The notes under the pieces: generated by a model
Database searches by the model: none
Told to the model about the DNA's origin: nothing
Seen by the model: only the letters and a program-made list of their open reading frames with translations
Shown here: positions 34,806-64,000 of the stretch, piece by piece
Position numbering within the stretch: position 1 is the stretch's first letter
Layout: every line of letters starts with the position of its first letter
Position numbers and translations under genes: made by a program
Assembly: GCA_963422365.1 (NCBI GenBank)
Contig: OY729426.1
Coordinates: 832,001-896,000 of the forward strand
Reading direction: 5' to 3'
Source of the DNA: Nitrospirales bacterium
GTDB taxonomy: Bacteria > Nitrospirota > Nitrospiria > Nitrospirales > UBA8639
Length of the DNA stretch: 64,000 bases

Positions 34806-35264
34806 ATGATTGCCGCGTATCATGCCGGCTACGTCGTCGATGCCTCTGTCGGAGTGAAATGGGTTGTTCGGAAACGGGAAGCCGATCGTGAAGCCACCTT
34901 GTTTTTGAGACAACATTATATAAAAGAAGAACGCGATTGATGGTGCGGAACGATTTCTGTTGGAAGTGCCCAACGCCATCAAACCCAGCGGAAAGGTCAC
35001 GAAAAAAGTATTGGCCTGCTCACGACACTGGCCGACCTGGAGATGCAGGTGGAACGACATACTTACGCCGTGCTGCGGAAGGCCAATGCCGTTGCGTGGG
35101 CCTACAACCTCACGTGGTACGACGCCGTCTACGTGGCCCTGGCCCCGAGATTGTAGGATTCCCCTGTGTCAGGGGCAGATGAAGCACTGCTCCGAAAAAT
35201 GAAAGGTCACAGCATCGTGCTCAGGATCAAGGAATTGGCGTTTCAATACCATGTCTTATCTTAA
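34806..35264 (+). pseudogene. Decayed PIN-domain (VapC-like) toxin
   Basis: YVVDASVGVKW, LLEVPNA, LTWYDAVYVALA and ADEAL spread over several frames. Confidence 0.8.
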
Positions 35265-37494
35265 GATGCCTTCAACGCAATCAAAACGCTACCTAGCGCA
35301 TGTTCGTCAAAAGGATGGCGTTTCTTTTGAGGAGCATGATCTGGAAAAACATTTGCGTGAAGTTGCCAGGGGTGCTGAAAAATTCTCCGAAAATTTTGGA
35401 AGCTCGGATTGGGGATTTCTTGCAGGGTTGTGGCATGACCTGGGGAAATATAGCGTGGAATTTCAGCGTTACATCAAGTCCGTGTCTGGTTACGACGCCG
35501 AAGCACATCTTGAAGGGCCAGTTGGTCGAGTTGACCACTCGACGGCTGGGGCACAGTACGCAGTAGACCAATTCGGGCTACATGGTCGGATATTAGCGTA
35601 TCTCATTGCCGGCCATCACACCGGACTGCCAGATTGGCACACAAGTGAAACCGCAGGCACGGCGTTAAAAGTACGCTTGGACGATAGCAGTCATTTGAAA
35701 CGTACCCTCAGCCAGGCAATTCCTCCCGAGATTCTTTCTCAACCGAAACCGACCAGCGCCCTGCTCGGCAAGGCTGGGGGCTTCGCCTTGTGGGTACGCA
35801 TGTTGTTTTCGTGTCTGGTGGATGCGGATTTTCTCGATACCGAAGCATTTATGGACATGGACAAGGCGGCGCAGCGGATCAATACTCCGACGCCCACGGA
35901 CTTGCTGCCGCGTTTCAATACCTACATGGAAGAGCAATTTTCACACGCTCCACCTACGCGCGTGAATCATATCAGAGCCAGAGTGCTCCAGCAGTGCCGG
36001 AATAAGGCCCATGAAGCGCCGGGGATGTTTTCGTTGACCGTTCCTACTGGCGGCGGCAAAACACTGTCAAGTCTTGCCTTTGCTCTGGAACATGCGGCTA
36101 TCCATGGAAAGCGGCGGATTATTTATGCCATTCCCTATGCCAGCATTATTGAGCAAACCGCAAACGTTTTCCGGGACATATTCCCCGATTCGGTGATCGA
36201 ACACCACAGCAACCTCGACCCCGATAAGGAAACAGCAAAAAGTCGTTTGGCAACAGAAAATTGGGATGCACCCGTGATCGTGACCACCAACGTCCAGTTC
36301 TTCGAGTCGCTATTTGCCGCCAAGACGAGTCGTTGCCGCAAATTGCACAACATCGTGGATAGTGTTGTTATATTGGATGAAGCCCAGCTATTGCCGCCCG
36401 AGTTTCTGCAACCGATTCTCGATGTGATGAATCTGCTGGTCCGTCACTACGGCGTGACCTTCGTATTATCGACGGCCACCCAACCGGCGCTGGGCACATT
36501 AAAAACTTTTCAGCAGACAATTCGTGGTCTTGACCATATGCGCGAAATCATTGACGACCCAGATACATTGTATCGTGACCTGGAGCGCATTGCCGTTTCC
36601 ATTCCGGACGACTTCCGGCAACCGCAGAATTGGGACGAAATCACGCGGCAAATCTTGCAGCATTCGTCTGTCCTCACGGTGGTCAACTCCCGCGCTGACG
36701 CGCGTGAACTGCACCAACATATGCCTGAGGGGACCATACACTTGTCGGCCCTTATGTGTGGAGAGCACCGCTCGCGTGTCATTATCGATATCAAACAGCG
36801 ATTGCGTGCTGGTGAAGCTGTACGCGTAGTGAGTACGCAGTTGGTAGAGGCAGGGGTTGATGTGGATTTTCCCGTGGTGTACCGCGCACTCGCGGGGCTG
36901 GATTCGATCGCGCAAGCCGCCGGCCGCTGTAACCGTGAGGGCAAGCTGGAACGCGGTGAAGTGATTGTGTTTGTCCCGCCTAAACCCGCACCGCCGGGTC
37001 CTCTGCGGCGTGCTGCGGAGACGACCGTCTCGTTGCTGTCAGGGTCTTCCGACCACACACTGATGCCGGACTTGTTCTCTCTCTACTTCAAGCATTTCTA
37101 TAGTAAGCAATCGCTCGACACACATGGCATCACCGACTTACTTACGCCCCAGGGAGGTAACGACGATCCGTTGAAAGTGCAGTTTCGTACCGCGGCCCAG
37201 CGTTTCCGGCTCATTGACGAGTCGGGCTATCGCAGCATCCTGGTACGGTATGGCGACAGTCCGGGATTGCTTGGCCGTTTGCAGAAAAAAGGGCCGGAGC
37301 GCTGGCTGATGCGTAAACTCCAGCGCTACACCGTATCCCTGCCGGAATATCAATTCCAAAAATTGCTGGCCAGCGGCGACGTATCTGAAATCTATTCCGG
37401 CATATTTGCGCAGACTGCGGACGTGCTGTATCACCTACAGCTTGGGATATTGTTGGACGACGTCAACCCCGATCCGAGCGATTTGATTAGTTAG
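35251..37494 (+). CDS. cas3: Cas3 HD nuclease-helicase, type I-C
   Basis: HDLGK, LVDADFLDT, PTGGGKT, DEAQ, QAAGRCNREG. Confidence 0.97.
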   Translation: MSYLKMPSTQSKRYLAHVRQKDGVSFEEHDLEKHLREVARGAEKFSENFGSSDWGFLAGLWHDLGKYSVEFQRYIKSVSGYDAEAHLEGPVGRVDHSTAGAQYAVDQFGLHGRILAYLIAGHHTGLPDWHTSETAGTALKVRLDDSSHLKRTLSQAIPPEILSQPKPTSALLGKAGGFALWVRMLFSCLVDADFLDTEAFMDMDKAAQRINTPTPTDLLPRFNTYMEEQFSHAPPTRVNHIRARVLQQCRNKAHEAPGMFSLTVPTGGGKTLSSLAFALEHAAIHGKRRIIYAIPYASIIEQTANVFRDIFPDSVIEHHSNLDPDKETAKSRLATENWDAPVIVTTNVQFFESLFAAKTSRCRKLHNIVDSVVILDEAQLLPPEFLQPILDVMNLLVRHYGVTFVLSTATQPALGTLKTFQQTIRGLDHMREIIDDPDTLYRDLERIAVSIPDDFRQPQNWDEITRQILQHSSVLTVVNSRADARELHQHMPEGTIHLSALMCGEHRSRVIIDIKQRLRAGEAVRVVSTQLVEAGVDVDFPVVYRALAGLDSIAQAAGRCNREGKLERGEVIVFVPPKPAPPGPLRRAAETTVSLLSGSSDHTLMPDLFSLYFKHFYSKQSLDTHGITDLLTPQGGNDDPLKVQFRTAAQRFRLIDESGYRSILVRYGDSPGLLGRLQKKGPERWLMRKLQRYTVSLPEYQFQKLLASGDVSEIYSGIFAQTADVLYHLQLGILLDDVNPDPSDLIS

Positions 37495-37548: not shown

Positions 37549-37626
37549 ATAGCACTATTTCAGTGAGGATTGAAACCATTGTCTTATAGCACCTGACCTC
37601 CACTCAGTCCTTGGATGAGTGGAGGT
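37549..37626 (+). ncRNA. Predicted crRNA-like regulatory RNA (pseudo-repeat, 16-nt promoter-matching spacer, 3' hairpin)
   Basis: CACT-atttc-AGTG hairpin followed by AGGATTGAAAC (last 11 nt of the array repeat); 37577-92 is identical to 37540-55; 11-bp hairpin 37596-37626. Confidence 0.75.
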
Positions 37627-37642
37627 TAAGTCGGGAGGACCA

Positions 37643-38368
37643 ATGAAAACCTATTGTCTTGAAGTCAGGGGTGACTTCGCCTGCTTCACACGACCTGAAA
37701 TGAAAGTCGAGCGCGTCAGCTATGACGTGATGACACCCTCGGCGGCTCGGGCCATTTTTGAGGCGATTCTCTGGAAACCGGCGATATGCTGGCAGGTGAG
37801 CAGGATCGAGGTGCTCAGCCCCATCAAGTGGATCAATCTGAGACGTAATGAAGTCGGTGGTGTTGCTTCGACGCGCAATATCGAAAGCGCGATGAGGTCC
37901 GGCACGGGGCAACTGGGCATGTATATAGAGGACGAGCGTCAACAGCGTGCTGGGTTGTTGCTGCGCGACGTGAGATACCGTCTCCATGCGTCGTTTGAGT
38001 TGCGCGACCCCAGCGTGCATAAGACGAATTTTCCACATCTAAGCAAACGAACGGTGAATGCTGGCGAGACCGATATGGATAACGAGCCGAATCAGGCAGT
38101 GAAATTCATGACGATGTTCGAGCGCCGTGCAAGTAAAGGGCAGTGCGTGAATCAGCCATATCTGGGCTGCCGGGAGTTTGCGGCGGATTTTTGGCTCGTG
38201 GAGCCGGGAGATTCACCAGCGCAACCGATCTCCGAGACACGCGAGTTGGGCTATATGCTGTATGACCTGGACTATCGTAGCCCCGCCACTCCCCCCCCGC
38301 TCTTTTTTCGAGCCAGCTTGATGAACGGCGTGCTCAACGTTCCGACCTGGGAGGAGGTGCGAGGATGA
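37643..38368 (+). CDS. cas5: Cas5c (Cas5d), crRNA-processing subunit
   Basis: GDFACFTRPEMKVERVSYDVMTPSAAR, QPYLGCREF; GGGAGG RBS before ATG 37643. Confidence 0.96.
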   Translation: MKTYCLEVRGDFACFTRPEMKVERVSYDVMTPSAARAIFEAILWKPAICWQVSRIEVLSPIKWINLRRNEVGGVASTRNIESAMRSGTGQLGMYIEDERQQRAGLLLRDVRYRLHASFELRDPSVHKTNFPHLSKRTVNAGETDMDNEPNQAVKFMTMFERRASKGQCVNQPYLGCREFAADFWLVEPGDSPAQPISETRELGYMLYDLDYRSPATPPPLFFRASLMNGVLNVPTWEEVRG

Positions 38369-40101
38369 TTTTGCAAGCGCTCTACGATTACTACGAACGC
38401 AAAAGCGCTGACCCGGAAGCTGGTTTGGCTCAGCCGGGTTTTGAGTGGAAAGAGATTCCTTTCATCGTCGAAATCGACACGCACGGAAACCCGATACAGA
38501 TTGAAGACACGCGTGAGGGAGAAGGTAAGAGAAAACGGGCGAAGGCGTTTCGGGTTCCGCAAGGTGTGAAGAAAACTTCCGGTGTGGTCGCCAATCTGCT
38601 CTGGGATAATGCGGCCTACGTCTTGGGTGTAGCAAAGGGGAAACCGAAGCGAGTTGAAGAACAACGTCAAGCATTCATCGCTAAAATCGAGGCACTGCCA
38701 ACCCCGGCGCGGAATGACGCGGGCGTGCAAGCCGTGTTGCACTTCCTCCAACAGGCAAATACTGAATTGCTGTCACAATGGACTGAGTGGCAAGAGATTG
38801 TTGAGACGGTTCCGAACCTTACGTTCCGCTTACAGGGCGATATAGACCTTGTGTGCCAGCGGCAGGCAACGGTAGAAGCCATCAGGATGGAACAGGACAC
38901 AACGAGTACGAGCGGCCTGTGTCTTGTGACAGGCGAGACTGACGAAATCGAGCGTTTGCATACAGCAATCAAGGGCGTGTGGGGTGCGCAAACGTCGGGA
39001 GCCAACATCGTCTCATTCAATCTTGACGCCTTTAATTCCTACGGCAAAACACAGGGCGCAAACGCACCTGTCAGCAAACACGCCGCGTTTAGCTACACCA
39101 CCACCCTCAACCACCTGCTCCGCAAAGATTCGCCGCAACGTCTGCAAGTTGGAGGTGCCAGCGTCGTGTTCTGGGCGGATAGGCCAACGAATTGGGAAAC
39201 CCTGCCCGTCGATATTTTCGGGGAGCCGACCAAAGATGATCCCGACCGTAATGTCCGGGCCGTGAGGAGTCTCTACACGGCTCTCACGAATGGCGTATTT
39301 GAAACCGAAGAAGGCCAAGCAAGATTCTTCGCCCTCGGACTTGCTCCCAACGCAGCGCGGATTGCCGTCCGTTTCTGGCAGCACGGTACGGTGGCGGAAA
39401 TGGCCGGACGGATAAAGCAGCACTTTGACGATCTGACTATTGAACGCTCACCACGTGACCCGCCCTATCTTTCGTTGTTTCGTCTGCTGGTGTCTGTGGC
39501 GACACAAGGCAAGGCGGATAATATCCCGCCGAATCTCGGGGGTGAATTGATGCGCAGCCTTCTCGCTGGCCTTCCCTATCCACAGACCTTGCTTGCGGCT
39601 GCTGTGCGCCGTATTCGTGCCGAGCACGAAGTGACGTATGCTCGTGCTGCTTTGGTCAAAGCCTGCATCAATCGTGCGACACGGTATGCAACCACCAATA
39701 TTGAGGAGGAGCTAACAATGTCTCTGGATGAAGCCAATATAAACGTCGGCTATCGCTTGGGCCGATTGTTCGCAGTCCTGGAGAAAATCCAGGAAGAAGC
39801 GCATCCCGGCATCAATGCCACCATACGGGACCGGTTTTATGGAGCGGCGTCGAGTACGCCGGTCACGGTGTTTTCGACCTTGCTGAAGCTGAAAAACCAC
39901 CATCTCTCTAAATTAGAGAATCGTGGCCGGGCGGTGAATATGGAGAAGCGTATTGGCAATATCATGGAAGGGCTGAGTGATTTTCCTGCCCAATTACGGA
40001 TAGAAGACCAGGGGCGTTTTGCTATTGGCTACTACCACCAACGGCAAGATTTTTTCAAAACAACTGATTCAAACTCATCTGATGTAAAAGAAGGAGCATA
40101 A
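38365..40101 (+). CDS. cas8c: Cas8c (Csd1)
   Basis: [46 protein letters not shown]. Confidence 0.96.
39718..40101 (+). CDS. cas11: Cas11c small subunit from an internal in-frame start in cas8c
   Basis: GAGGAGGAG RBS then ATG (MSLDEAN...) at the position known for I-C Cas11. Confidence 0.75.
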
Positions 40102-40103
40102 CT

Positions 40104-40988
40104 ATGGGCATTGAGAATCGGTACGATTTTGTCCTGTTATTCGACGTGAAGGACGGCAACCCCAACGGTGATCCTGACGCGGGCAATCTCCCGCGCGTCG
40201 ATGCCGAGACCGGGCGCGGTCTGGTGACTGATGTGAGCTTGAAACGCAAGGTCCGCAACTACGTTGGGATAGTGAAAGCGGAACAGCCGCCGTTTGAAAT
40301 CTACGTCAAGGAAAAGGCGATCCTCAACAAACAGCACGAACGCGCGTATGAGGCTATCGGGTCCAGTGACGCACTGAAAGGTGACGACAAAAAGCGGAAA
40401 GGCGGTGACAAGGTAGGCGAGGCACGGGCCTGGATGTGCAAAAACTTCTACGATGTGCGGACTTTTGGCGCGGTCATGTCCACAGGTGTCAATTGCGGTC
40501 AAGTCCGTGGTCCCGTTCAACTCACGTTCGCACGTTCGGTTGATCCTATTGTTGCCCAGGAACATTCGATTACTCGGATGGCGGTGGCAACAGAAGCGGA
40601 AGCTACTAAACAAGAGGGGGATAATCGTACGATGGGCCGTAAGCATACCGTGCCGTATGGTCTGTACATGGCGCGCGGCTTTGTGTCGTCACACCTGGCA
40701 ACGCAAACCGGCTTCTCCGACGACGACCTCGCACTCTTGTGGGAAGCGCTCAGCAACATGTTTGAACATGATCGTTCAGCCGCCCGCGGAGAAATGGCGA
40801 CCCGAGGCTTATATGTGTTCAAACATGACTCGCAACTGGGCAACGCGCATGCGCATGACCTTTTTATGCGTATTCAACCCAAGTTGAAAGAAGACGTCAT
40901 CGTGCCGCGTGATTTTGACCATTATCGCGTTTCGGCCGATACCACGGATTTTCCCAAAGGCGTGGAGTTGATCCAAATAGTGACGTGA
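40104..40988 (+). CDS. cas7: Cas7 (Csd2)
   Basis: [34 protein letters not shown]. Confidence 0.96.
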
Positions 40989-40992
40989 GCGT

Positions 40993-41661
40993 ATGGATTT
41001 CTCTGATAGTGCTCCGCTTTCTGGTAGAGTGAGTTTTGAAACGGAGGAGAGCAACCTTATCATGATCTCCGCCCTGGAACATTGGAGTTATTGTCCGCGG
41101 CAATGTGCGCTGATTCATGTCGAGCAAATATTTGATGAAAATCTGTACACGCTCCGTGGGCGAGCAGTTCACAAGCAGGTAGATGAGATTGAGTCAGTGG
41201 TTGAGCGTGGTGTCCGGGTCGAGCGCGCTTTGCCCCTTTGGAATCGAAGGCTTGGTTTGATAGGGAAAGCCGACGTTGTAGAATTTTACGGTGGGACGCC
41301 GTACCCTGTGGAATACAAGCACGGTTCTCGCCGCCAGCGTGAACACGATGACCTCCAACTCTGTGCGCAAGCGATGTGTTTAGAAGAAATGACAGGGCAA
41401 GCCGTGCCACGGGGCGTGATTTTTCACCACAAGTCTCGCCGCCGCAGGGAAGTTATCTTTACTCCAACCTTGAGACAGCAGGTCGAAGAGGCCATTGCAG
41501 CCATTCGGACGCTGTTGGCTGAAACAAGGCTCCCACCACCGGTCAATGATCAGCGATGTGAAAAGTGTTCGCTCAATGAATCATGTATGCCCCAGGTGAT
41601 TGAAGAGCGGAAGCATGAAAAACAGCTCCTTGCCGATCTGTTCCAGGTGGTAACCCCCTAG
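40993..41661 (+). CDS. cas4: Cas4
   Basis: YCPRQ, GKADVVE, PVEYK, QLCAQ, CxxCSLxxxC. Confidence 0.95.
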   Translation: MDFSDSAPLSGRVSFETEESNLIMISALEHWSYCPRQCALIHVEQIFDENLYTLRGRAVHKQVDEIESVVERGVRVERALPLWNRRLGLIGKADVVEFYGGTPYPVEYKHGSRRQREHDDLQLCAQAMCLEEMTGQAVPRGVIFHHKSRRRREVIFTPTLRQQVEEAIAAIRTLLAETRLPPPVNDQRCEKCSLNESCMPQVIEERKHEKQLLADLFQVVTP

Positions 41662-41670
41662 AGTAGGTTT

Positions 41671-42702
41671 ATGCACCAACTTCTTAATACCCTCTACATT
41701 ACCACGGAAGGCGCCTACATCCGCGCGGACCATGAAACATTGAAAGTGGAAGTGGAAAAAGAAACGAAGCTGCAAGTGCCGATTCACCATATTGGCAGTG
41801 TGGTGTGTTTCGGGGACGTGCTGATGAGTCCGGCGGCTATTCATCGGTGTGCGGGCGAAGGACGCTCCGTGGTCTGGCTTGATCGCAACGGTCGCTTTAA
41901 GGCGCGTGCGGAAGGCCCGGTCTCGGGAAACGTGTTGTTGCGTCGAGCCCAACATGCAGCCTCATTAAATCCAGTGGTCACGCTGAACATTGCGAGAAAT
42001 ATGGTGGCGGGAAAGGTCCAAAATGCTCGACAGGTTGTATTGCGTGGAGCAAGAGAAGCTACGCGAGAGGATTATGGTGTTGCGCTGCGAGACACGGCTA
42101 ACGCACTAGCCAGAACGGTTCAGCGCCTGCCTGCTTGTGAAGATCTAGACACCCTGAGAGGGCTTGAGGGTGAAGCGGCTCGTGTGTATTTCTCGACGTT
42201 TGACCGAATGGTCTCGGTTGATGAAGAAACCTTTAAGATGAATGGTCGAAGTCGCAGGCCGCCGGTAGATCCGTTGAATGCTATCTTATCCTTTCTCTAT
42301 GCCTTGTTGATGAATGACTGTGTGGCGGCGGCTGAGGGCGTAGGGCTTGATCCGCAGGTCGGCTTTCTGCATGCCATCCGGCCTGGGCGCGCTGCGTTTG
42401 CTTTGGACTTGATGGAAGAATTTCGCTGTATTTTAGCTGATCGGTTGGCGTTGACCTTGATCAACCGGCGGCAAATCACCGCACCAGATTTTCTGGAGCG
42501 GCCTGGTGGGGCTGTGCATTTACACGATGATAGTCGAAAGGCTGTCATCGTGGCGTATCAGAAACGCAAGCAAGAAGAAATCACGCATCCTATGCTGGAT
42601 CAAAAAATGCCGTTTGGGGTGGTTCCGCATGTGCAGGCACGGTTACTGGCTCGGGTGCTCAGGAAGGATATGGAGGCCTATATCCCATTTACCATCCGGT
42701 AG
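41671..42702 (+). CDS. cas1: Cas1, type I-C
   Basis: [37 protein letters not shown]. Confidence 0.96.
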
Positions 42703-42712
42703 GAATACTCCC

Positions 42713-43003
42713 ATGCACGTCTTAGTGACCTATGATGTCTCGACAGAGACGGCTGCAGGAAAAAGGCGGTTGCGGAAGATTGCCGAAGCGTGTCAGAACT
42801 TTGGGCAGCGCGTGCAAAAATCGGTGTTTGAATGTGCGGTCAACGAGATGCAATACGAGGAATTGACTCGGCGGTTAGTCAACATCATGGATGAAAAGGA
42901 GGATAGCCTACGGTTGTACCGGCTTGCACAGCCGAAGGAGCAATACGTGAAAGTTTTTGGAATTGACACAGCGGTGGATTTTGAGGGGCCTCTGGTGTGG
43001 TAA
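42713..43003 (+). CDS. cas2: Cas2
   Basis: [24 protein letters not shown]. Confidence 0.95.
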
Positions 43004-43182
43004 ACGCGAACCTGAAGCGCTTGCAAAATCCTAGGAGATTCGCGGGTAAGAGAACATGTTGATTTCATGAGGAGTTTGAGCATGTGGATCAATAAACAGG
43101 ATGTAAACGATGAGATGCGAAAAGGAGGTTCGCCGGATGAATGCGTTAACTGTCTGAAAGTTCGACAGATTTTTGTGATACA
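43004..43182 (+). promoter_or_regulatory. CRISPR leader
   Basis: AT-richer region with GCGAACC (43006), GATTCGC (43037) and GGTTCGC (43127) inverted motifs typical of I-C leaders. Confidence 0.8.
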
Positions 43183-46100
43183 GTAGCGCCCACCTTTCGA
43201 GGTGGGCGAGGATTGAAACTCCGCACAAAAGGCGATGACGTCGGCATCATGTTCCGTAGCGCCCACCTTTCGAGGTGGGCGAGGATTGAAACGGGCAGAC
43301 ATTGTGGCCGTATTGACGGAATTCCGATTGTAGCGCCCACCTTTCGAGGTGGGCGAGGATTGAAACAAGAATTTTACAAATAACAAGAAAAACAAAAATG
43401 TAGCGCCCACCTTTCGAGGTGGGCGAGGATTGAAACTCCTCGCCCGTGCGCTATGCCTCTGGTGAGCAGCGTAGCGCCCACCTTTCGAGGTGGGCGAGGA
43501 TTGAAACGAAGAGCTCATCGCCGCCCGGCGGCACCGCCACAACGTAGCGCCCACCTTTCGAGGTGGGCGAGGATTGAAACAGCGTGGCCGCCACGCTACC
43601 AGACAAAACAAGTATCGTAGCGCCCACCTTTCGAGGTGGGCGAGGATTGAAACACGTCATCATTGAGCCGTGCCGTATTGATCGAGCGTAGCGCCCACCT
43701 TTCGAGGTGGGCGAGGATTGAAACTCGATCCCCGGCGCAATGCCGGCGAGGATCGACAGTAGCGCCCACCTTTCGAGGTGGGCGAGGATTGAAACTTTTT
43801 GGCGCCGAGCGAACGCGGCGGACAAAATAGTAGCGCCCACCTTTCGAGGTGGGCGAGGATTGAAACAGTCTGTCGCCCGCGCTCTGATGCGCGATGATGC
43901 GCGTAGCGCCCACCTTTCGAGGTGGGCGAGGATTGAAACTCAAAACGCAAGCAACGATAAGCCGGCGAACAACAGTAGCGCCCACCTTTCGAGGTGGGCG
44001 AGGATTGAAACATGTGCCCGAAGGAGAACGCGAATATGTCGCGTCAGTAGCGCCCACCTTTCGAGGTGGGCGAGGATTGAAACATCGCGCCGCACGAGTT
44101 GCTGTGCCGCGTGTACCGTAGCGCCCACCTTTCGAGGTGGGCGAGGATTGAAACATTTTTTCGCCGACGTCGGTGTTGCGCGAGGCCGAGGTAGCGCCCA
44201 CCTTTCGAGGTGGGCGAGGATTGAAACCAAAACCGTGCGGGACTTCACGGCGCGGGTGTTCCGTAGCGCCCACCTTTCGAGGTGGGCGAGGATTGAAACA
44301 CCGGTCACCTCCGGCAAAAATATCGAGATCTCCGGTAGCGCCCACCTTTCGAGGTGGGCGAGGATTGAAACTAGATCGCGGGCGTGGCGGCATCTCCGCC
44401 TCTTGCGTAGCGCCCACCTTTCGAGGTGGGCGAGGATTGAAACATCCACCAATCCCAAGAGCCGCATCTCATATGTGGTAGCGCCCACCTTTCGAGGTGG
44501 GCGAGGATTGAAACAGACTTGGCGGACGACCGTGCAATCCGGCGGCGCCGTAGCGCCCACCTTTCGAGGTGGGCGAGGATTGAAACGCGCTCTCCCTCTG
44601 GCACGTCGAGATCATCCATCGTAGCGCCCACCTTTCGAGGTGGGCGAGGATTGAAACGCCAATGCGAAAGCCCAGGCCTGGTGGCGCGTGCGGTAGCGCC
44701 CACCTTTCGAGGTGGGCGAGGATTGAAACAAAAAAATCGTGCACGATACATTTTTATCGATCTCGTAGCGCCCACCTTTCGAGGTGGGCGAGGATTGAAA
44801 CTATTTTTCCCAATTTGGGTGAGCGAAAAAATATTGTCGTAGCGCCCACCTTTCGAGGTGGGCGAGGATTGAAACTAAAAAGTGAATACCATTTAATCCT
44901 CTCGCCCGATCGTAGCGCCCACCTTTCGAGGTGGGCGAGGATTGAAACGAGAGCTCGCCGGTTTGCCCCACCGGCCGGCGGTCGTAGCGCCCACCTTTCG
45001 AGGTGGGCGAGGATTGAAACGACCAAGCATGGTACGATCAAAAACGCGCGGCCGCGTAGCGCCCACCTTTCGAGGTGGGCGAGGATTGAAACAGATTGTG
45101 ACTCAATCGTCGGATCCAATCCCTCAAAGTAGCGCCCACCTTTCGAGGTGGGCGAGGATTGAAACTGGTACGTCGAGATCATCCATCATGCGATTGATCG
45201 TAGCGCCCACCTTTCGAGGTGGGCGAGGATTGAAACAACAGGGCCGGGCGGGCGGAGGCCGCGAGGAACACCGTAGCGCCCACCTTTCGAGGTGGGCGAG
45301 GATTGAAACACTTTTGTCCCGACGGCCGCTGCGGCAATGCTATTGTAGCGCCCACCTTTCGAGGTGGGCGAGGATTGAAACCTTGATGGCCTCCGGCACC
45401 GCGGAGGCTGACACGAGTAGCGCCCACCTTTCGAGGTGGGCGAGGATTGAAACGTCTGGGGCAATCCGTGCTCTTCGGAGGGCTGTCCAGTAGCGCCCAC
45501 CTTTCGAGGTGGGCGAGGATTGAAACCTCGCAGCGCGCCTTTCCTGGTGTCCCACAGCGCCGTAGCGCCCACCTTTCGAGGTGGGCGAGGATTGAAACGG
45601 ATCCATTTAAATCCTCGCCGCACTGGCACAGTGTAGCGCCCACCTTTCGAGGTGGGCGAGGATTGAAACACGACCGCGCAAATCGAGATGATCACCGCAC
45701 TCAGGGTAGCGCCCACCTTTCGAGGTGGGCGAGGATTGAAACACACAAGCACTCGCCGGCAATACCGCGATCCTTATTGTAGCGCCCACCTTTCGAGGTG
45801 GGCGAGGATTGAAACGTTGCTTGGCCTCGATGCCGGCAAAGCCAAGGATAGTAGCGCCCACCTTTCGAGGTGGGCGAGGATTGAAACCAGAGCCCGGCGA
45901 GAGCCACCCAAATGTATCCTTGGTAGCGCCCACCTTTCGAGGTGGGCGAGGATTGAAACTTAAATGCGAAAGCCCAGGCCTGGTGGCGCGTGCGGTAGCG
46001 CCCACCTTTCGAGGTGGGCGAGGATTGAAACATCGTCTCTCGGGCGCTCACCGTATCATGCAGATGTAGCGCCCACCTTTCGAGGTGGGCGAGGATTGAA

Positions 46101-49100
46101 ACACGGTGTTTCGGGTGGTGGGGCGGAAAAAATAAAAAGTAGCGCCCACCTTTCGAGGTGGGCGAGGATTGAAACCCTAGAGAGATACCCTAATGGCAAA
46201 ACTACTTATAGTAGCGCCCACCTTTCGAGGTGGGCGAGGATTGAAACTGAATAGCGCCTGATCATAATCGCGGCTGGTCTCAAGTGTAGCGCCCACCTTT
46301 CGAGGTGGGCGAGGATTGAAACTACCACCAGCGTCGCCGCGCCGCATGGGTTGACAGTAGCGCCCACCTTTCGAGGTGGGCGAGGATTGAAACATACTCG
46401 CCGTGGCCGTTGACCTCGGCGACCAAAGTAGCGCCCACCTTTCGAGGTGGGCGAGGATTGAAACATTAACAACAACGATGGGTCCCCGAGCCGCACGCAG
46501 TAGCGCCCACCTTTCGAGGTGGGCGAGGATTGAAACCCCCGCTGGTGGCGGTGCGGAACAGCCCGAGGGTGGTAGCGCCCACCTTTCGAGGTGGGCGAGG
46601 ATTGAAACTATGTGGACCGCCGCTGGGACGGCACGCAGCTCTTGTAGCGCCCACCTTTCGAGGTGGGCGAGGATTGAAACGGCAAATCCGGACGCGATGT
46701 GATGGGCTCAGCCTCGTAGCGCCCACCTTTCGAGGTGGGCGAGGATTGAAACCAATCCGGCGGCGCCAATGTGTCGGCCTCGCGCGAGTAGCGCCCACCT
46801 TTCGAGGTGGGCGAGGATTGAAACGGGTGCAAGATGAGATTAATCGCAAGCGCCATGGGGTAGCGCCCACCTTTCGAGGTGGGCGAGGATTGAAACTCCC
46901 ACGCACCCTGATCGCGATACTCGATCACAGCATGTAGCGCCCACCTTTCGAGGTGGGCGAGGATTGAAACGAGCAATTGGCCCTCCTCGCCGCCGAGGCG
47001 GTGCCGCGTAGCGCCCACCTTTCGAGGTGGGCGAGGATTGAAACGCGTAATGCGCCGAGTGGGAGCGCTCGTGCACGATGTAGCGCCCACCTTTCGAGGT
47101 GGGCGAGGATTGAAACGTGGCATCCTGATACACATATGATTGCAGGATGAGCGTAGCGCCCACCTTTCGAGGTGGGCGAGGATTGAAACTGCACTAGCCG
47201 CCGGCGTGGCCGATCCGCCGATGGGTAGCGCCCACCTTTCGAGGTGGGCGAGGATTGAAACGTTTGCGCGTGGCGCTCACGCGCACGGCATTGATCGTAG
47301 CGCCCACCTTTCGAGGTGGGCGAGGATTGAAACATCTCGGTCGTGACCTCCTCGTAGCTGGCGAGCGGTAGCGCCCACCTTTCGAGGTGGGCGAGGATTG
47401 AAACCAGGAGCTCCGCGAGGCCAGCCCCGTGGATACGGGGGTAGCGCCCACCTTTCGAGGTGGGCGAGGATTGAAACACCGTCCGTGCCCGGCTCCCCGC
47501 GATTGGCGAGTAGTAGCGCCCACCTTTCGAGGTGGGCGAGGATTGAAACTCCTCCTTGCGTCCGTCATGAGAGGCTGAGGCACGCGTAGCGCCCACCTTT
47601 CGAGGTGGGCGAGGATTGAAACCGATCTCGGTGCGAGTAGATAAATTTATCCATGTCGTAGCGCCCACCTTTCGAGGTGGGCGAGGATTGAAACGCGCCC
47701 CAGTTGATGGTGATCGATTGCATGTTGGGCGTAGCGCCCACCTTTCGAGGTGGGCGAGGATTGAAACGCAATCGAGGCAATCGCCACAGCCGGCCTGATG
47801 ATGTAGCGCCCACCTTTCGAGGTGGGCGAGGATTGAAACATCGTTAGCATTGCAACCATTGTTTTTATGATTATCGTAGCGCCCACCTTTCGAGGTGGGC
47901 GAGGATTGAAACGCGGCATCGGCGCGCCGCCGAATCTCACCGATGCCGTAGCGCCCACCTTTCGAGGTGGGCGAGGATTGAAACTTGCAAAAAATCGAAA
48001 GCCACGAAAAGCTATGCTGTAGCGCCCACCTTTCGAGGTGGGCGAGGATTGAAACCGCGAGAGATGAGCCGGGCGGCCCGCACCAGGCGAAGTAGCGCCC
48101 ACCTTTCGAGGTGGGCGAGGATTGAAACGCGTCGATGCCAGGTTGGACGAGGCGTGGAAAGAGAGTAGCGCCCACCTTTCGAGGTGGGCGAGGATTGAAA
48201 CATGTGATCAAATTTAGCATCAATAATTTTTTGCGGTAGCGCCCACCTTTCGAGGTGGGCGAGGATTGAAACCGAGATCCCATTCCGCTGGCGGCAATAT
48301 TTGGCCTGTAGCGCCCACCTTTCGAGGTGGGCGAGGATTGAAACAGCGCAAACGCCGTTGCCCGCGTGGTGAAAATCGGATGTAGCGCCCACCTTTCGAG
48401 GTGGGCGAGGATTGAAACTCCGCGACGGGAGGCGCGGCGGCTTGCCTTAGCCGGTAGCGCCCACCTTTCGAGGTGGGCGAGGATTGAAACCAAGCTGGTC
48501 GCGCACGGAGGCAGGCGCTCAGCCATCGTAGCGCCCACCTTTCGAGGTGGGCGAGGATTGAAACGAGAAGATAGAGGCCACGCTGGGCGTGATCCCTGAG
48601 TAGCGCCCACCTTTCGAGGTGGGCGAGGATTGAAACAGGTCCATCAGCAGGCATCTGTGCACGGATGGCCGCGTAGCGCCCACCTTTCGAGGTGGGCGAG
48701 GATTGAAACAAAAATCCTGTTGCCGACCACGAGCCCCGCGAGCGCCGTAGCGCCCACCTTTCGAGGTGGGCGAGGATTGAAACCACTGTTGCCCGGCATT
48801 GGCGGCGATCGAGCTGTAGTAGCGCCTACCTTTCGAGGTGGGCGAGGATTGAAACACTACGCCGGACAGCACGAGCACCCTCACGCTCGAGGTAGCGCCC
48901 ACCTTTCGAGGTGGGCGAGGATTGAAACATGGCATTCATTCTCAGCAGTTCATTTGTTCCGGAGTAGCGCCCACCTTTCGAGGTGGGCGAGGATTGAAAC
49001 ATGGATACTCTTACCTATCATCATGAGCCAACTGGCGTAGCGCCCACCTTTCGAGGTGGGCGAGGATTGAAACGGTAGACTTCGGACGAGACCAATCGAT

Positions 49101-50373
49101 CTGATCAAGGTAGCGCCCACCTTTCGAGGTGGGCGAGGATTGAAACTTGAGCGGCAGATCCATCTCTATCGTAAGCCACAGTGTAGCGCCCACCTTTCGA
49201 GGTGGGCGAGGATTGAAACAACGGCCACGGCGAGTATGCCATGACCACTGTGAGCGTAGCGCCCACCTTTCGAGGTGGGCGAGGATTGAAACATACCTGG
49301 TGCCTGTGCCGCTTACGGTGATCGCCGGTAGCGCCCACCTTTCGAGGTGGGCGAGGATTGAAACCGAGCCATCCGCGCACTGGATCACCACGCGCTGGCG
49401 TAGCGCCCACCTTTCGAGGTGGGCGAGGATTGAAACTCGCCGCCGGTGCTGGCGGATCAGGAGGCGCCGGGTAGCGCCCACCTTTCGAGGTGGGCGAGGA
49501 TTGAAACTATACGTACACCAACCTATTCTCTTGGCGCAGGAAGTAGCGCCCACCTTTCGAGGTGGGCGAGGATTGAAACCGATTGATTCCGGTTTTTCTC
49601 CTTTCAGCGGATACGTAGCGCCCACCTTTCGAGGTGGGCGAGGATTGAAACAAAGCTGATCTCGCGGCCGGCCTCGCGCTGCGGCGTGTAGCGCCCACCT
49701 TTCGAGGTGGGCGAGGATTGAAACAAGCGCCGAGAGATCGACTCCTGGCTGCTCAGCCCGTAGCGCCCACCTTTCGAGGTGGGCGAGGATTGAAACCGCG
49801 ACCGCCGGCCGGTGGGACAAACCGGTGAGCGTAGCGCCCACCTTTCGAGGTGGGCGAGGATTGAAACCTCGGCCGCACAGCCAATGGCTGCATCCACAGC
49901 ATCGTAGCGCCCACCTTTCGAGGTGGGCGAGGATTGAAACAAAGCTGATCTCGCGGCCGGCCTCGCGCTGCGGCGTGTAGCGCCCACCTTTCGAGGTGGG
50001 CGAGGATTGAAACAAGCGCCGAGAGATCGACTCCTGGCTGCTCAGCCCGTAGCGCCCACCTTTCGAGGTGGGCGAGGATTGAAACCTCGGCCGCACAGCC
50101 AATGGCTGCATCCACAGCATCGTAGCGCCCACCTTTCGAGGTGGGCGAGGATTGAAACAGTTTCGGGGCCGAGGATTTCCTGGCGCGCGACCTCGTAGCG
50201 CCCACCTTTCGAGGTGGGCGAGGATTGAAACGCAAAGAGGGTCACACACAACATAAGATGTTGAGGTAGCGCCCACCTTTCGAGGTGGGCGAGGATTGAA
50301 ACCGCGACCGCCGGCCGGTGGGACAAACCGGTGAGCGTAGCGCCCACCTTTCGAGGTGGGCGAGGATTGAAAC
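43183..50373 (+). CRISPR. CRISPR array; 37-nt repeat GTAGCGCCCACCTTTCGAGGTGGGCGAGGATTGAAAC; 100 repeats / 99 spacers by manual count
   Basis: Near-invariant repeat (one C>T variant at about 48819), 8-bp hairpin, spacers of about 33-38 nt. Confidence 0.99.
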
Positions 50374-50703: not shown

Positions 50704-50988
50704 TTACGAGAGCAGCTTCATCAGCGTGACAACGGCGGTGACGATACCGACAGACATGGCCCAAAGGTGTTTGTAGAGGGATTCGAATTTATGGGTGATG
50801 CGCAGTTCGAGGGTCTGCAGATCGGCCTTCGTTGCGGTCTTTAGTTCTTGCAGATCGGCCTTCGTTGTGACGTTCCCACCGACTGCGTCGCCGACCGTAG
50901 CGATCACGGCTTCGGCCTGGGCATCGCCGAAGCCTGCATCCCGAAGCGCCTTGGCGGCCTTGAGCGTATCGAAAGCTAGCGAGGTCAT
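50704..50988 (-). CDS. DUF1640/CCDC90-like coiled-coil protein
   Basis: FDTLKAAKAL..AGF...QAEA, duplicated TKADLQ, C-terminal TM helix. Confidence 0.8.
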   Translation of the reverse strand: MTSLAFDTLKAAKALRDAGFGDAQAEAVIATVGDAVGGNVTTKADLQELKTATKADLQTLELRITHKFESLYKHLWAMSVGIVTAVVTLMKLLS

Positions 50989-51095: not shown

Positions 51096-52735
51096 ATGTC
51101 AACTAATGTAACTCCCGAACCCACCATCTGTGTCATGGCTCTCCACGCCCTGGCGTACTGAGAGCGTCTTTTCTACCTGGAAGAGGTCGAAGAGATCCGC
51201 GTCGCCGATGTGGCTGTGTACGCGGGCCGCCGACTCTATGAAGAGTTGGCGGCTGACGAAGGCGAGCTTGTCAGCATGGTCCTGGAGAGCGAAACGCTCG
51301 GCATCCGTGGCAAAGCTGATTGCCTATGCCGACGCAATGGTCAGATCATTCCCTACGAGCACAAGTGCGGTCGTTCGGCCAAAGGCGACGATGGTTCGCA
51401 GGCATGGACGAGCGACAGGCTTCAGGTCTACGCGTATACGCTACTGTTAGAAGAGCACACCAGTACGCCGATCCATGAAGTCCGGATTCGTTGTCACGCC
51501 AATAATACCACGGTCCGTGTTCCTGTGGACGAAAAAGCACGTGCAGATGTCCGGGAGGCTGTTGCTTATGCCCGAGAACTCAGTCGGTCAGTTGAACGTT
51601 CACCTGTGGCTGAAAATGATCGGCTGTGTCTGCGCTGCTCCCTAGCCCCGGTCTGTCTGCCCGATGAAGAACGCCTGGCCAAAGACGATGATTGGGAACC
51701 CGTCCGGTTATTTCCACAAGATCGTGAACGCCAGACCATCCACGTCACCACACATGGAGTCCGGATTGGGAAGTCAGGAGAAACGCTGACCGTCACGGAT
51801 ACGACAGGCAGAAGCAGGTGTTTCCTGTTCGCGAGGTTGGCGAAATCATTATTCACGGCTACGTCCAAATCAGTGCACAGGCAATCCATCTCTGTGCCTC
51901 TCAGGAAGTTGGGGTGCATTGGTTTACCGGAGGGAGGCAATATGTGAGTGGGCTGGTTGCAAGTGCCGGTCCGGTGCAGCGGCGTATCCGTCAGTTCGAG
52001 GTATTGTGAGATCCTGGCTTGATATTTCGTTTGGCCAGGCAGTTAGTGATTGCCCGAGCGTCCAGCCAACTTGGGTTTTTGCTGCGGGCGTCGCGGGGCA
52101 AAGATCGCAAGGCTTTGGGCATTGAGGAGGCCGTGTGGGGGCTTCGGAACGCGCTTCGTGCTGCCAGTTATGCAGAAGGGATTGATTCCTTGCGCGGTCA
52201 CGAAGGGGACGCTGGACGGCACTATTTCTCAGGCTTCCCTGGGCTACTGCGAGACGACTTGGACGAAAAACTGTGTTTCAATGGAAGAAATCGTCGTCCA
52301 CCTCAGGATCGGATCAACGCGCTGCTGAGCTTTGGCTATGCGCTTTTGTACCGTGATGTGCTGCAGGCGATTATGGCTGTCGGGCTTGAACCGGCTTTCT
52401 GATTTTTCCATCGACCGCGCTTGGCTGCCCACCCCCTTTCCTTGGATTTAATGGAATTGTTTCGGGTCCCACTGTGGGACATGCCGTTGGTAGCTTCGGT
52501 CAATCGTCTGCAATGGGACATGGAAGCGGACTTTACGCCGGCGAGCAAGCAAATCTGGCCGAGTGACTCCGGTCGAAAAAAAGCCATTGAGGTGTATGAA
52601 CGACGAAAGGAAGACCACTGGAAACATCCGGTTACGGGTTATTCATTATCATACGTGCGATTGATCAAACTGGAGGCCCGTTTGCTGGAGAAGGAATGGG
52701 CTGGGGAGCCTGGATTGTTTGCGCACATGCGTCTG
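51096..52735 (+). pseudogene. Cas4-Cas1 fusion (MYXAN-type) pseudogene
   Basis: [65 protein letters not shown]; stops at 51159, 52007 and 52400, frameshift near 51815. Confidence 0.88.
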
Positions 52736-52899
52736 GTTGAGAGGTCGGGTCACCCGTGCGGGGCAGGGAACTATTTGTGTTTTTGCGAGCCTGCCCCCTG
52801 CTTTGCCCGAGAAACGGGAAATTTCCAGGAGGTGAGAGGGGGGCGTTCTTGGGGGATTTTGAGGGGCGGCGTGGGAGCAGAATGAGGAGAACCCCCGGG

Positions 52900-59163: not shown

Positions 59164-62100
59164 ATGAACCGACAACGACACTTTCACCCTGTGAAGAGAT
59201 TGAACCACGTCCCCATTCTTCGGGTTCTCACCGCACCCTTCGTTACTACCCCCCCCCCCCCCCCCCCCCCCCCCCCGAAATTCCTGTTCGGCAGGCCAAC
59301 GCCGTGAAATCTCGTCAACCCCTGCGGCACCTCGCCGCTGCCCTCGGCCTGATCCTCTATATCATCTGTGTCCTGCCGGTCGCTGCACAGACTTCCGCCG
59401 GCGTCACGTTATCCAAAAGCAGTGTCACCGTTACCGAAGCCAGCGGCGCTGGGCGCACCGCCACCTACACCGTGGTACTGGACACCGAGCCGACAGCGAA
59501 CGTCACCATCACCATCACCAGTGGCGATACCAGTATTGCCACCGTCTCCCCGGCATTGCTGACCTTCACCACAGCCAACTGGAATACCCAACAGATCGTC
59601 ACCGTCACCGCCGGTCAGAATGAGGACATTGATCATGGTGTTTCTAAAAGTGTGTCGATTTATCATACTCCATCCGGCCGCGGCTACGGCGACAGGGATA
59701 CGGTTCTTTTATCTGTCAACGTGTTAGACGACGACATCGCCGGTATCACCGTCACCGAGACCGGTGGCAGCACCGCCACCACCGAAGCCGGTGGCGCCGA
59801 CACCATCAGCGTAGTGCTGGACACCGAGCCGACAGCGGACGTCACCATCGCCGTATCCAGCTCCGACACCACTGAAGGTACGGTTGACAAGAGCAGCTTA
59901 GTCTTCACCGCTTCCAACTGGAATACCCCACAGATCGTCACCGTCACCGGTCAGGATGACAACCTGGCCGATGGTGATCAATCCTATAACATCGTACTGG
60001 CCAAGGCCGTCAGTGGCGACGTTCATTACGGCGGCAGCCTCACAGTCTACAACGCCATTAACCCAGCGGACGTGACGGTGACCAACGCCGATGACGACGC
60101 CGGTGTCATGTTGTCCACGAGTGCGGTCACCGTCACCGAAGCCAGCGCCGGGCGCAGCACCACCTACACCGTAAAACTCAGCATCCAACCCTCGGGCAAC
60201 GTCACCGTCACCCCCACCAGCGGCGATACCAGCGTGGCCAGAGTCTCCCCGGCCTCCCTGACCTTTACCACTACCAACTGGAATACGGCACAGCCCATCA
60301 CCGTCACCGGCGTGGATGACAGCACCGATGGGGATAGAACCACCACCATCAGCCATACAGTAACTGGTGCCGACTACACCTCAGTCAGTGCCGCCATTGT
60401 CGTCGTCACCCTCACCGACGACGACAATGGCCCACCGACCGGCGCCGTGACCATCACCCGCACCGCTACCCAGGGACAGACGTTGACCGCGGACACCTCT
60501 GGCATCTCCGACCCGGACGGCCCGAGTAATTTAATGTTCGGTTATCAGTGGAAGCGCGATGGCGCTGCCATCAGCGGCGCCACCAGTGGCACCTACACCC
60601 TGACACAAGCCGACGTCGGGTCGGCCATCACCGTCACCGTGAGTTGGACCGATGCTGGCAACACTGCCGAATCCCTTACCTCTGCGGTGGCAGTTCTTCC
60701 CTCTGGGGTGACAGTGCCGGCGGCCCCTGCTGGTCTCACAGTGATTGTGCGCAGTGGCAAAATCAAGTTCCGCTGGGAGATTCCCAACAACCCCGACATC
60801 ACCGGCTATCAATACAAACAATGGACTGGCAATACCGAACCCAGTCTTGGCACCTGGGTAGACTTTTCAGGTGCAATGTCTGCGACTACACAGAACCGCT
60901 CGGTACGAGGTTTGACCGACGGCACCGAATACAACTTCCGCATTCTGGCGATAGCCGGCAGTGTGACGGGGACCCCGTCCGGCGTTATTACCGTGAACCC
61001 GTCGATCACTCCGGATGTGCCCGCCAGGCCTGCTGCCGTCACCGCGGTACCCGGCGACGGACAAGTAGCGTTAAGTTGGACTAATCCCAATAATGCTCTC
61101 ATTACCAAGTATCAGATCCGGCGGCAGGACGTGACGATTGCACCCGACGGGGGTAAAACCAGCGGGAACTGGAGTGATTGGAGTGACATCCCCGGCAGTG
61201 GCAAAGACACCACCGGCTATACAGTGACCGGTTTGACCAACGGCATGAAGTACAACTTCCGCATTCGGGCGGTAGCCGGTACCTCGTCCTATGGGAAGGC
61301 GTCCAGCGCCGCCGGTGCCAGGCTGGCGATACCGGCCGCGCTGGTCGCGGCGGCGCCGCCCAAACCCACCGGCCTTGCGAAGGTCATTGGCAACGGCCAA
61401 GTGACATTAACCTGGGACAATCCCAACAATCTTGCCATCACCGGGTATCAATATAAATACTGGAGTGGCACCCCCGAGAGCGGCCGCTGGAGCGAGGTGT
61501 CGGGCAGTGACAAAGACACCATCAGCCACGTGGTGACGGGGTTGACCAACGGCACCAAATACCACTTCCGCCTTCGGGCGCTGGTCGGGCGGGTTGCCGG
61601 AGTGAAGTCCCGTTCCACTAGTGCCACACCGGCGGTCCCGCCGGTGCAGGCCGCGCCGACTGCAATCAGTGCGCAGGCCGGGTACAGACAAGTCGAGTTG
61701 ATCTGGCGTGATCCGAGTCTGAGGGATCAGAAGGACACCACCATCACCAAATACCAGATCAAATACTGGAGCGGCCCGAGCGAGACGGGGGCCTGGCGGG
61801 ACATTTCCGCCACGATCAACACCAGACACGCCTACTACATCGTGACGGGGCTGACCAACAGCGTGCCGTACAATTTCCGGCTTCGTGGGTTGACGAACGG
61901 GTTTGTGGTGACCGAGTCCAACCGCGTGCAAGCGAGCCCGGTGGCGCCGCCGCCGAACACCCCCGCCCGCCCTCAGGCGGTGGCCGGCGACGGTGAAATA
62001 ACGTTAACCTGGGCCAATCCCAACAACCGCGACATCACCGGCTATCAGATTCGGCAATGGACGGGCGGTGGGGAGCGAGGCAGTTGGAGTGCTTGGAGCG

Positions 62101-64000
62101 ACATCCCGGGCAGCGACAAAGCCACCACCGGCTATACCGTGAGTGGGCTGACCAACGGGGTGAAATACAGCTTTCGCATTCGGGCGGTCGCGGGCAGGGT
62201 GACGGGGTCGCAGTCCCCCTACACCGCCGTCGTAATCCCCGGGGCCACGCCGGGCCAGCCCGCCCTCAGGGCCGTGGCGGGCGAGGGGGAAGTGACGTTA
62301 CGCTGGAGTGATCCGACCAATCCCACCCTCTGTACCGGCTATCAATATAAACAATGGACTGGCAATGCCGAGCCTGCCGATGGCTGGGTTGACTATCGGG
62401 CAGCGATGCCAACACCGTCCGTCACGTGGTGAGTAGTCTGACCAATGGTCTAGCCTACACCTTCCGCGTTCGTGCGGTGGGCAACAACGGTATCGTGGGT
62501 CCCCCGTCGGATGTTGTCCGGGCCACGCCGAGGGCCGGCAGAGTGACGAGAGCGGCGGCGGCCGGGGGGCTCACCGTCATCGGGGCGGACCCGGGCACGC
62601 TCGACATCACGGGCGACCGCATCACCGCCACGGTGGGCGGCACGGGGGTGGGGCTGACGCTGCCGTCTGCACACGGCGTCACCCGGGTCACCTTCTCGAG
62701 GCCGCCGCGGGCAGCCGTCCCGGCACCGCAGGCTGGGGTGACCTTTGGAGCGGCAGCGGCCTACGTGAACGTGGAGCTAGACCCGCCGCTGCCCTCAGCC
62801 TCACCGGCCACGGTCTGTCTGCACCGGCCGGCCGGGCTGTCGGGCCATGCCGCGGTCTATCACCTGGCCGAGCAGGGCCGTGAGTGGGAAGCACTGGCCG
62901 GGGCCGGCCCCGAGCATCAGGCCCGGCGACCGGGGGACATCTGCAGCAGCCTGCGAAGTGGGTCGCCGGTTGTCGTCGGGACCCGAACCGTGGAGGGGGC
63001 CACCCACACCCGTGACGCCGACCCCCTGGGCGTCACGTTATCCGACACCCGTGTCACGGTCACCGAAGCCAGTGGTGCCGGGCGCACCGCCACCTACACC
63101 GTGGGGCTCACGGCCCAGCCGAGTAGCGCTGTCACCATCACCCCGACCAGCGGCGAGCCCGGCGTGGCCACCATCACCCCCTCATCCATCACCTTCACCC
63201 CCGCCACCTGGGACACGGCCCAGGCCGTCACCGTCACCGGGGTGGATGACCGCGTTGATGCGGATCGCCGGACGACCATTACCCATACCGTCACCGGGGG
63301 GGGCTATGACGCGGTACGTATCCCCGACGTGGCCGTCACGCTGACGGATGACGACACGGTAGCGGCCCGGCTCTTCGGCTTTGCCGGGGACACCCTGACC
63401 GTCACCGAGGCCGACGGCGCCATGCACCGCACCTACTACCAAATCGTCCTGCAAAGCCAGCCGACCGGCGCCGTCACCATCATTCCCACCAGCGGGAAGA
63501 CCGGCGTAGCCACCGTCACCCCTTCATCCATCACCTTCACCGCTGATACCTGGGCCGAGCCACAGAGCCTCGCGGTCACCGGCGTGGACGACCACGTTGA
63601 TGGGGGAGACCGACGCACCACCATCACCCATACCGTCTCTGGGGGCGGCTACGACGCGGTGCGCATTCCCGACGTGGCCGTCACGCTGACGGATGACGAC
63701 GTGGCCGGCATCACCGTCACCGAGACGGATGGCCACACCGTGACCACCGAAGGGGGGAGTCGCGACAGCGTCAGCGTGGTGTTAGACAGCCAGCCCACGG
63801 CCGAGGTCACCCTCACCGTCTCGAGTTCCGACGTGAGTGAAGGCACTGTTGACACGAGCCGCCTGGTCTTCACCCCCCACAACTGGGCCACCGCGCAGGT
63901 GATCACGGTCACCGGGGTGGATGACCGGTTGGATGATGGCGAGCAGTCGTACAAGATCGAACTGGGTATCGCAGCCAGTCGCGACAGCCACTACAATGGG
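59164..64000 (+). CDS. Giant surface protein: signal peptide, Calx-beta-like repeats, about 6 FN3 domains, more Calx-beta-like repeats. Out of frame at the poly-C tract and at about 62395; runs off the window
   Basis: LPVAAQ signal cleavage; GLTNG..Y.FRIRA FN3 motifs; frame from 62399 stays open to 64000. Confidence 0.85.
59249..59276 (+). repeat. Poly-C homopolymer (28 C)
   Basis: Direct count. Confidence 0.95.

Follow-up and report, generated by a model that had tools for sequence, protein, structure and literature searches.

The window, i.e., the whole 64,000-nt stretch of a Nitrospirales genome analyzed here, carries a type I-C CRISPR-Cas locus in which seven cas genes are followed by a leader and a long array (Table 1). 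The genes were called using NCBIfam profiles with curated cut-offs, and each gene exceeds its own cut-off. They comprise the cas5c/cas8c/cas7c Cascade together with cas3, and the cas4-cas1-cas2 adaptation module with its leader and array, the composition characteristic of type I-C. All cas genes are full-length, and no spacers are held in common with the arrays of relatives; activity in both interference and adaptation is predicted from the genes. The repeats are 37 nt long, 99 of the 100 copies are identical, and 95 of the 99 spacers are unique. Five genomes of the genus share a conserved leader, with a mean column identity of 84%, hence spacer 1 is the newest; as the leader lies at the left of the array, the three spacers that are central here were acquired in the order 28, 20, and 12.

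The genome also contains type I-G and III-A systems, and the remains of a type I-G cas4-cas1 fusion lie directly past the array. In several members of the genus, the I-C repeat also occurs as solitary or degenerate copies (L055–L064), at least one of them at a contig end. The genome encodes a 1,146-aa molybdopterin oxidoreductase, which we take to be a nitrite oxidoreductase, and the host is likely a nitrite-oxidizing bacterium.

Table 1. Features of the I-C locus and related elements; coordinates refer to the window unless a contig or locus is named.
Feature	Coordinates	Strand	Remarks
cas3 (HD nuclease and helicase)	35251–37494	+	TIGR01587, TIGR01596
cas5c	37619–38368	+	TIGR01876
cas8c	38365–40101	+	TIGR01863
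cas7c	40104–40988	+	TIGR02589
cas4	40993–41661	+	TIGR00372
cas1c	41671–42702	+	TIGR03640
cas2	42713–43003	+	TIGR01573
Leader	43004–43182	+	~180 nt, from cas2 to the first repeat
Type I-C CRISPR array	43183–50373	+	100 repeats (Rfam CRISPR-DR9), 99 spacers of 33–38 nt
Spacers 1 and 2	43220–43329	+	newest; perfect matches to host argG and a BglII-like restriction gene
Spacer 12	44012–44046	+	newest of the three; opposite strand to 20 and 28
Spacer 14	44155–44190		opposite strand to 50, overlap 13/15; chance match possible
Spacer 19	44515–44549	+	overlap with 50, 15/15
Spacer 20	44587–44620	+	same strand as 28
Spacer 21	44658–44692	+	common start with 39, positions 1–3 differ
Spacer 25	44949–44983		opposite strand to 92; 29/31, both differences in one codon phase
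Spacer 28	45166–45199	+	oldest of the three; reverse complement reads as 11 codons
Spacer 39	45960–45994	+	see 21
Spacer 45	46394–46427		opposite strand to 84, 18/18
Spacer 50	46753–46787	+	see 14 and 19
Spacer 51	46825–46859		opposite strand to I-G spacer 4
Spacer 84	49220–49255		see 45
Spacer 92	49797–49830		see 25
Block duplication near the trailer end	49652–50336		spacers 90, 91, 92, 93 repeated as 94, 95, 99, 96
Small CCDC90-like protein	50704–50988		weak hit
Broken type I-G cas4-cas1 fusion	51210–52885		at least three pieces
GC-rich phage remnant	52600–58800		Mu F-like head gene
Fibronectin type III repeat protein	59304–62432		1,042 aa
Other GC-rich phage remnants	G000:C1:2212300–2215100, 1077300–1083900
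I-G spacer 4	L003:11418–11454
425-nt "spacer" of the type III-A array	L004:9791–10215 (G000:C1:1094791–1095215)		between two intact repeats, likely at the trailer end
Giant repetitive adhesin-like genes	G000:C1:18000–46000		similar sequence at ~2458000–2481000, near the other contig end

Spacers 28, 20, and 12 cover overlapping parts of one coding stretch. The start of spacer 20 lies 12 nt 5' of that of spacer 28, and 21 of the 22 bases in their overlap are identical; the sole difference, GTA/GTG, falls at crRNA position 4 of spacer 28, and variant 20 carries CTC 5' of the spacer 28 site, i.e., at its PAM position. Spacer 12 agrees with the reverse complement of spacer 20 at 16 of 20 positions, the differences being GAC/GAT, CCA/CCC, and GAG/GAA (twice). 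The variant sampled by spacer 12 mismatches spacer 20 at positions 4, 10, 13, and 19 and spacer 28 at positions 1, 4, and 7, and carries TTC at the PAM positions of both, whereas the 5' flank of spacer 12 itself is TCG in both older variants. In the reading frame that we infer for the tiled stretch, all five differences among the three spacers are synonymous changes of third codon positions, far above chance. The opposite strand in the same codon phase is also open and unchanged, and the gene is likely to run as read from the reverse complements of spacers 28 and 20. Since seven other spacers separate 28 from 20, and another seven separate 20 from 12, the captures were separate episodes. Re-derivation from the array bore out what the preliminary description had said of the coordinates, numbering, and codons of these spacers, of third-position changes (five of five synonymous on recount), of the seed change at position 4 and CTC at the PAM site of spacer 28, and of the GAA in spacer 12 that gives TTC 5' of spacer 20.

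Chance similarity does not account for these overlaps. The score of spacer 20 is 8 with spacer 12 and never exceeds 3 with any of 481 spacers from related genomes, and none of 30,000 shuffled spacers reached 8 (one orientation tested). Four random substitutions were all synonymous in 329 of 200,000 trials (0.16%). Overlapping pairs at that score number seven among 4,465 in the array, versus 0.16 expected from cross-genome pairs. Variant pairs sharing the same start are also present elsewhere, namely, in G008, G041 (two pairs), G048, and one metagenome array. In addition, I-C spacer 51 and I-G spacer 4 have 27 nt in common before their sequences part, so the two systems have encountered one and the same invader family.

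The check set beforehand was to find the target and tabulate its flanks; the target was absent from all collections searched. The motif searches were exact and miss any amino-acid change, and records closely related to this genome may be missing from the collections. The degenerate motif of spacer 20 had no matches in viral, metagenome, and genome contigs, and in 38 genomes of the genus, with up to two mismatches, it retrieved the array itself only. The motifs of spacers 28 and 12 had no matches in viral contigs; the single match of the latter in genome contigs is to a Clostridiales gene, whose context fails to continue the peptide. Exact cores of the pair 21/39 and of spacer 51 were not found in viral contigs, and the one match of the 20/28 core there diverges on both sides. 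The whole array retrieved five annotated phage records (E = 8) and eight plasmid records, four of them repeat-like at 60–80% identity and the other four reflecting a Paracoccus kinase gene that spacer 97 matches over 28 nt, the flanks being mismatched; all were rejected. Beyond the array, neither its own genome nor the loci retrieved contain a match to the tiled peptide. Two public read runs do not contain the array, with nothing aligned to spacer 20, and none of its spacers recur in ten metagenome loci that have the same repeat.

Arrays of related genomes were likewise compared with the genus (G000, G048, G008, G049, and G041; best seven candidates per genome) and with five genomes each (G048, G015, and G013); the matches listed include no prophage protospacers and consist of repeats, host repetitive DNA, and self-matches. 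None of the GC-rich phage remnants (Table 1) is matched by spacers.

The canonical PAM of type I-C systems is TTC, while CTT, TTN, and others also occur (PMC8482600); in Legionella, according to PMC5602111, TTC accounts for ~90% of I-C acquisitions, flips for ~1%, and +1 slips for ~2%. Seven 5' flanks can be read from the overlaps. TTC is found in two, both provided by variant 12 (for spacers 20 and 28); the remaining flanks are CTC (28 in variant 20), GTC (84), GTG (50), GGC (45), and TCG (12). GGC and TCG come from older variants, hence escape cannot explain them, and a flip, a +1 slip, or an altered codon is needed for spacers 12 and 45. Three perfect self-matches are available, those of spacers 1 and 2 (5'/3' flanks AGG/GTT and AAT/GAA, respectively) and of the newest spacer of G049 (L142:2735; 5' flank ATC). 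None of them has TTC on the 5' side; one, spacer 2, has GAA on the 3' side and looks flipped, the 3' GAA being the mark of a flip. TTC is likely the PAM of this system, based on the literature and indirect statistics and not on the overlaps, while the triple suggests TTC without fixing the PAM. Of the earlier claim that the three spacers reveal a TTC PAM, the PAM itself is likely, given the literature, the trinucleotide depletion described below, and the self-match flanks; the overlaps by themselves do not reveal it, with TTC in two of seven flanks and TCG at spacer 12.

Among 576 I-C spacers from nine genomes, 240 begin with A, 214 end with C, and only 65 have T at the third-last position; these biases are likely processing preferences at both spacer ends.

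In six comparisons (28 in 20, 20 in 12, 28 in 12, 84 in 45, 50 in 19, and 39 in 21) the seed or PAM of an older spacer is visible in a newer variant, and all six exhibit a difference in the seed or a non-TTC PAM, with TTC taken as the PAM. This is what an immune filter predicts, without showing that the changes arose as escapes. Seed positions hold 9 of the 23 mismatches in six same-start pairs, which is not significant (p = 0.07).

The overlaps, their synonymy, the spacer order, and the cas genes are observed in the sequence; the PAM, the priming, and the nature of the invader belong to the interpretation that follows. Most probably, relatives of one phage or mobile element circulated together, and three synonymous versions of one coding stretch were acquired from them on three separate occasions; the type I-C system that acquired them probably uses the TTC PAM. 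Spacer 28 would have been taken beside TTC from variant A. Relative B would be poorly bound, given its CTC in place of that PAM and its seed mismatch, and likely primed Cascade-Cas3, whereupon Cas4-Cas1-Cas2 would have taken spacer 20 from 12 nt upstream. Spacer 12 would then have come from relative C, which is more distant and has TTC at the two sites as well as seed mismatches to both spacers, the capture being flipped, slipped, or beside a PAM other than the canonical one. Immunity would act as a filter on the relatives that pass, and the differences look like standing silent diversity, not mutations gained in succession.

Priming in this scheme is plausible and compatible with the data, yet not required, since 93 spacers sampled uniformly from 25 kb average seven overlapping pairs. 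Primed spacers of the Legionella I-C system are enriched 5' of the priming site (PMC5602111). Here, both same-strand offset pairs have the newer spacer 5' of the older one (20/28 at 12 nt and 19/50 at 20 nt); opposite-strand pairs fit such placement only if flipped, with 12 and 45 starting 15 and 16 nt 5' of 20 and 84, respectively. The avoidance of internal PAMs on one strand, as in type I-E, was not observed, because TTC and GAA are both depleted; this expectation may not transfer to I-C.

One could dispense with priming altogether, the array being derived mostly from one small PAM-poor invader family and the overlaps reflecting independent resampling of few sites. This explanation departs from the co-circulation scheme in the priming step alone, and we consider it unlikely, although sampling by itself suffices for the number of pairs: 93 spacers simulated on 25 kb yield 7.1 overlapping pairs, 38% of the runs contain one triple or more, and uniform sampling of a 15–40 kb target yields seven pairs (P = 0.56 at 25 kb). 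The depletion of TTC/GAA on both strands also differs from the one-strand signature of primed I-E uptake (PMC6282206). On the other hand, two triples are less probable under such sampling (7.5% at 25 kb), the second triple depending on the weak 13/15 overlap of spacers 14 and 50, and the placement of the newer spacer 5' of the older in both same-strand pairs is what priming predicts.

Serial escape, in which a single lineage answered each spacer with PAM and seed mutations and was then captured anew every time, is improbable. Every newer variant does differ from the older spacer in seed or PAM, the changes are silent and hence cheap, and the same process is one reading proposed for the Legionella element LME-1 (PMC5071653). 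However, at the site of CTC in variant 20, variant 12 reads TTC. If TTC also flanked spacer 28 at its capture, a linear series requires a reversion that restores the PAM, and under the same assumption no descent series accumulating escape changes is observed. Four changes in 20 bases, three of them beyond the seed of spacer 20, exceed what escape requires, and CTC still gave 95–99.5% protection in the Legionella I-C system (PMC5602111). Variant 12 is also GAA-rich, unlike the 64 of 95 spacers that are devoid of TTC/GAA. The preliminary description had proposed repeated re-immunization against escape variants or close relatives. The repeated capture of variants of one gene is retained and close relatives are the better fit, whereas escape is disfavored by TTC at the older sites in variant 12 and by four differences per 20 bases.

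Paralogous copies or repeats inside one invader genome, in place of different invaders, are a very unlikely source of the variants: ~80% identity with silent changes only is also seen between recent paralogs and would be compatible with them, but silent variant pairs at another locus (25/92) and in relatives (G041 27/28) point to population diversity. Differences arising in the array itself by mutation, recombination, or assembly error, or a chance match of spacer 12, are hardly credible given that nearly all repeats are identical, that the five differences are silent and in one codon phase, and that the chance tests are contrary, even though no spacer-sharing sister strain was found among the relatives and no reads covered the array in the two public runs.

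The indirect statistics mentioned above concern trinucleotide content. Of 32 trinucleotide pairs, none is as depleted in the 95 spacers as TTC/GAA, with 46 occurrences versus 80 expected from dinucleotide shuffles, and both orientations are low (TTC 21 vs. 35, GAA 25 vs. 45). Compared with GC-matched host DNA the counts are 44 vs. 102, and random host 35-mers have observed-to-expected ratios of 0.97–1.03. The deficit is seen in all eight flanking contexts (weakly in TTCC and TTTC) and in three GC bins; 64 of the 95 spacers lack TTC/GAA entirely, and three, spacer 12 among them, contain three or more. In spacers of relatives the ratio is 0.93, and 576 I-C spacers exhibit no strand asymmetry between TTC and GAA (260 vs. 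268). GAC/GTC and CCC/GGG are also low in these spacers, and the GC-rich Mu-like remnants have TTC/GAA ratios of 0.72–0.96; hence codon habit may be behind part of the depletion. The host windows poorest in TTC/GAA, tried as candidate invaders, turned out to be giant adhesin genes and Mu-like remnants.

The type III-A array of the same genome contains an unusually long "spacer" of 425 nt (Table 1). It carries a whole ORF of 117 aa with CxxC motifs, a weak IscB hit, and no Pfam hit, which we read as HNH-like, and its ends share a direct repeat of ~20 nt. The ORF has 356 relatives at E up to 0.001, with 27–52% identity among those listed, and no close relative was found among them. The insert contains three TTC/GAA, where GC-matched host DNA averages 11 and 2.8% of the windows are equally low; in trinucleotide profile, its correlation with the spacer pool exceeds the 99th percentile of that of host windows. 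The count and the profile are suggestive only of a link between the insert and the genome that supplied the spacers. A narrow literature search, too narrow for a claim of absence, yielded no gene-length spacers in type III arrays.

A speculative, though possible, extension is that a dominant invader family of ~15–40 kb has purged TTC/GAA from both strands to about half of expectation by silent codon changes under I-C pressure, that spacer 12 came from an unadapted PAM-rich relative, and that the 425-nt insert stems from the PAM-poor genome. PAM erosion is known in principle (PMC4246573). If the extension is true, long-term erosion would be legible in host spacers alone, and if the depletion on both strands reflects invader-wide PAM erosion, spacer composition could report long-term immune pressure even with the phage unsequenced.

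The overlapping-spacer record is real, and its kind has already been described for a natural type I-C array in PMC5071653. It adds to the natural cases of CRISPR arrays that sample a diverse invader repeatedly and leaves the knowledge of type I-C PAMs unchanged. Two points concern method: flanks derived from overlaps alone cannot fix a PAM, and triples of silent variants need not imply serial escape.

The closest counterpart is the set of LME-1 pairs in the type I-C system of Legionella pneumophila Toronto-2005 (Rao et al., 2016, PMC5071653), in which spacers of different age likewise lie on overlapping sites and identical or overlapping spacers within arrays are taken to indicate that close relatives invaded repeatedly. 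In both records, the older spacer faces a PAM or seed change in the later variant (here in 6/6 cases, with TTC taken as the PAM), there read as natural priming after escape. The LME-1 target is known and tested; here, three versions, the newest with TTC at the older PAM sites, are known from spacers alone. Primed acquisition by the L. pneumophila I-C system, as described by Rao et al. (2017, PMC5602111), is similar in spacer lengths centered at 34–36 nt, in the TTC PAM that is likely here, and in the 5' enrichment that our offset pairs may reflect; it includes flips with 3' GAA, like our self-targeting spacer 2, and TCN flanks from +1 slips, possibly like spacer 12. Those are laboratory plasmid data, while priming here is inferred from four pairs. 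GAA/TTC is under-represented on both strands of I-C-targeted DNA according to Kupczok and Bollback (2014, PMC4246573) as well, there in phage genomes with codon-aware controls and here in 3.3 kb of spacers, with a depletion stronger than in relatives and a possible codon bias. Finally, the PAM trinucleotide is also rare inside spacers of the primed I-E system, but there, according to Musharova et al. (2018, PMC6282206), AAG is avoided and its complement is not, whereas in our array TTC and GAA are both low.
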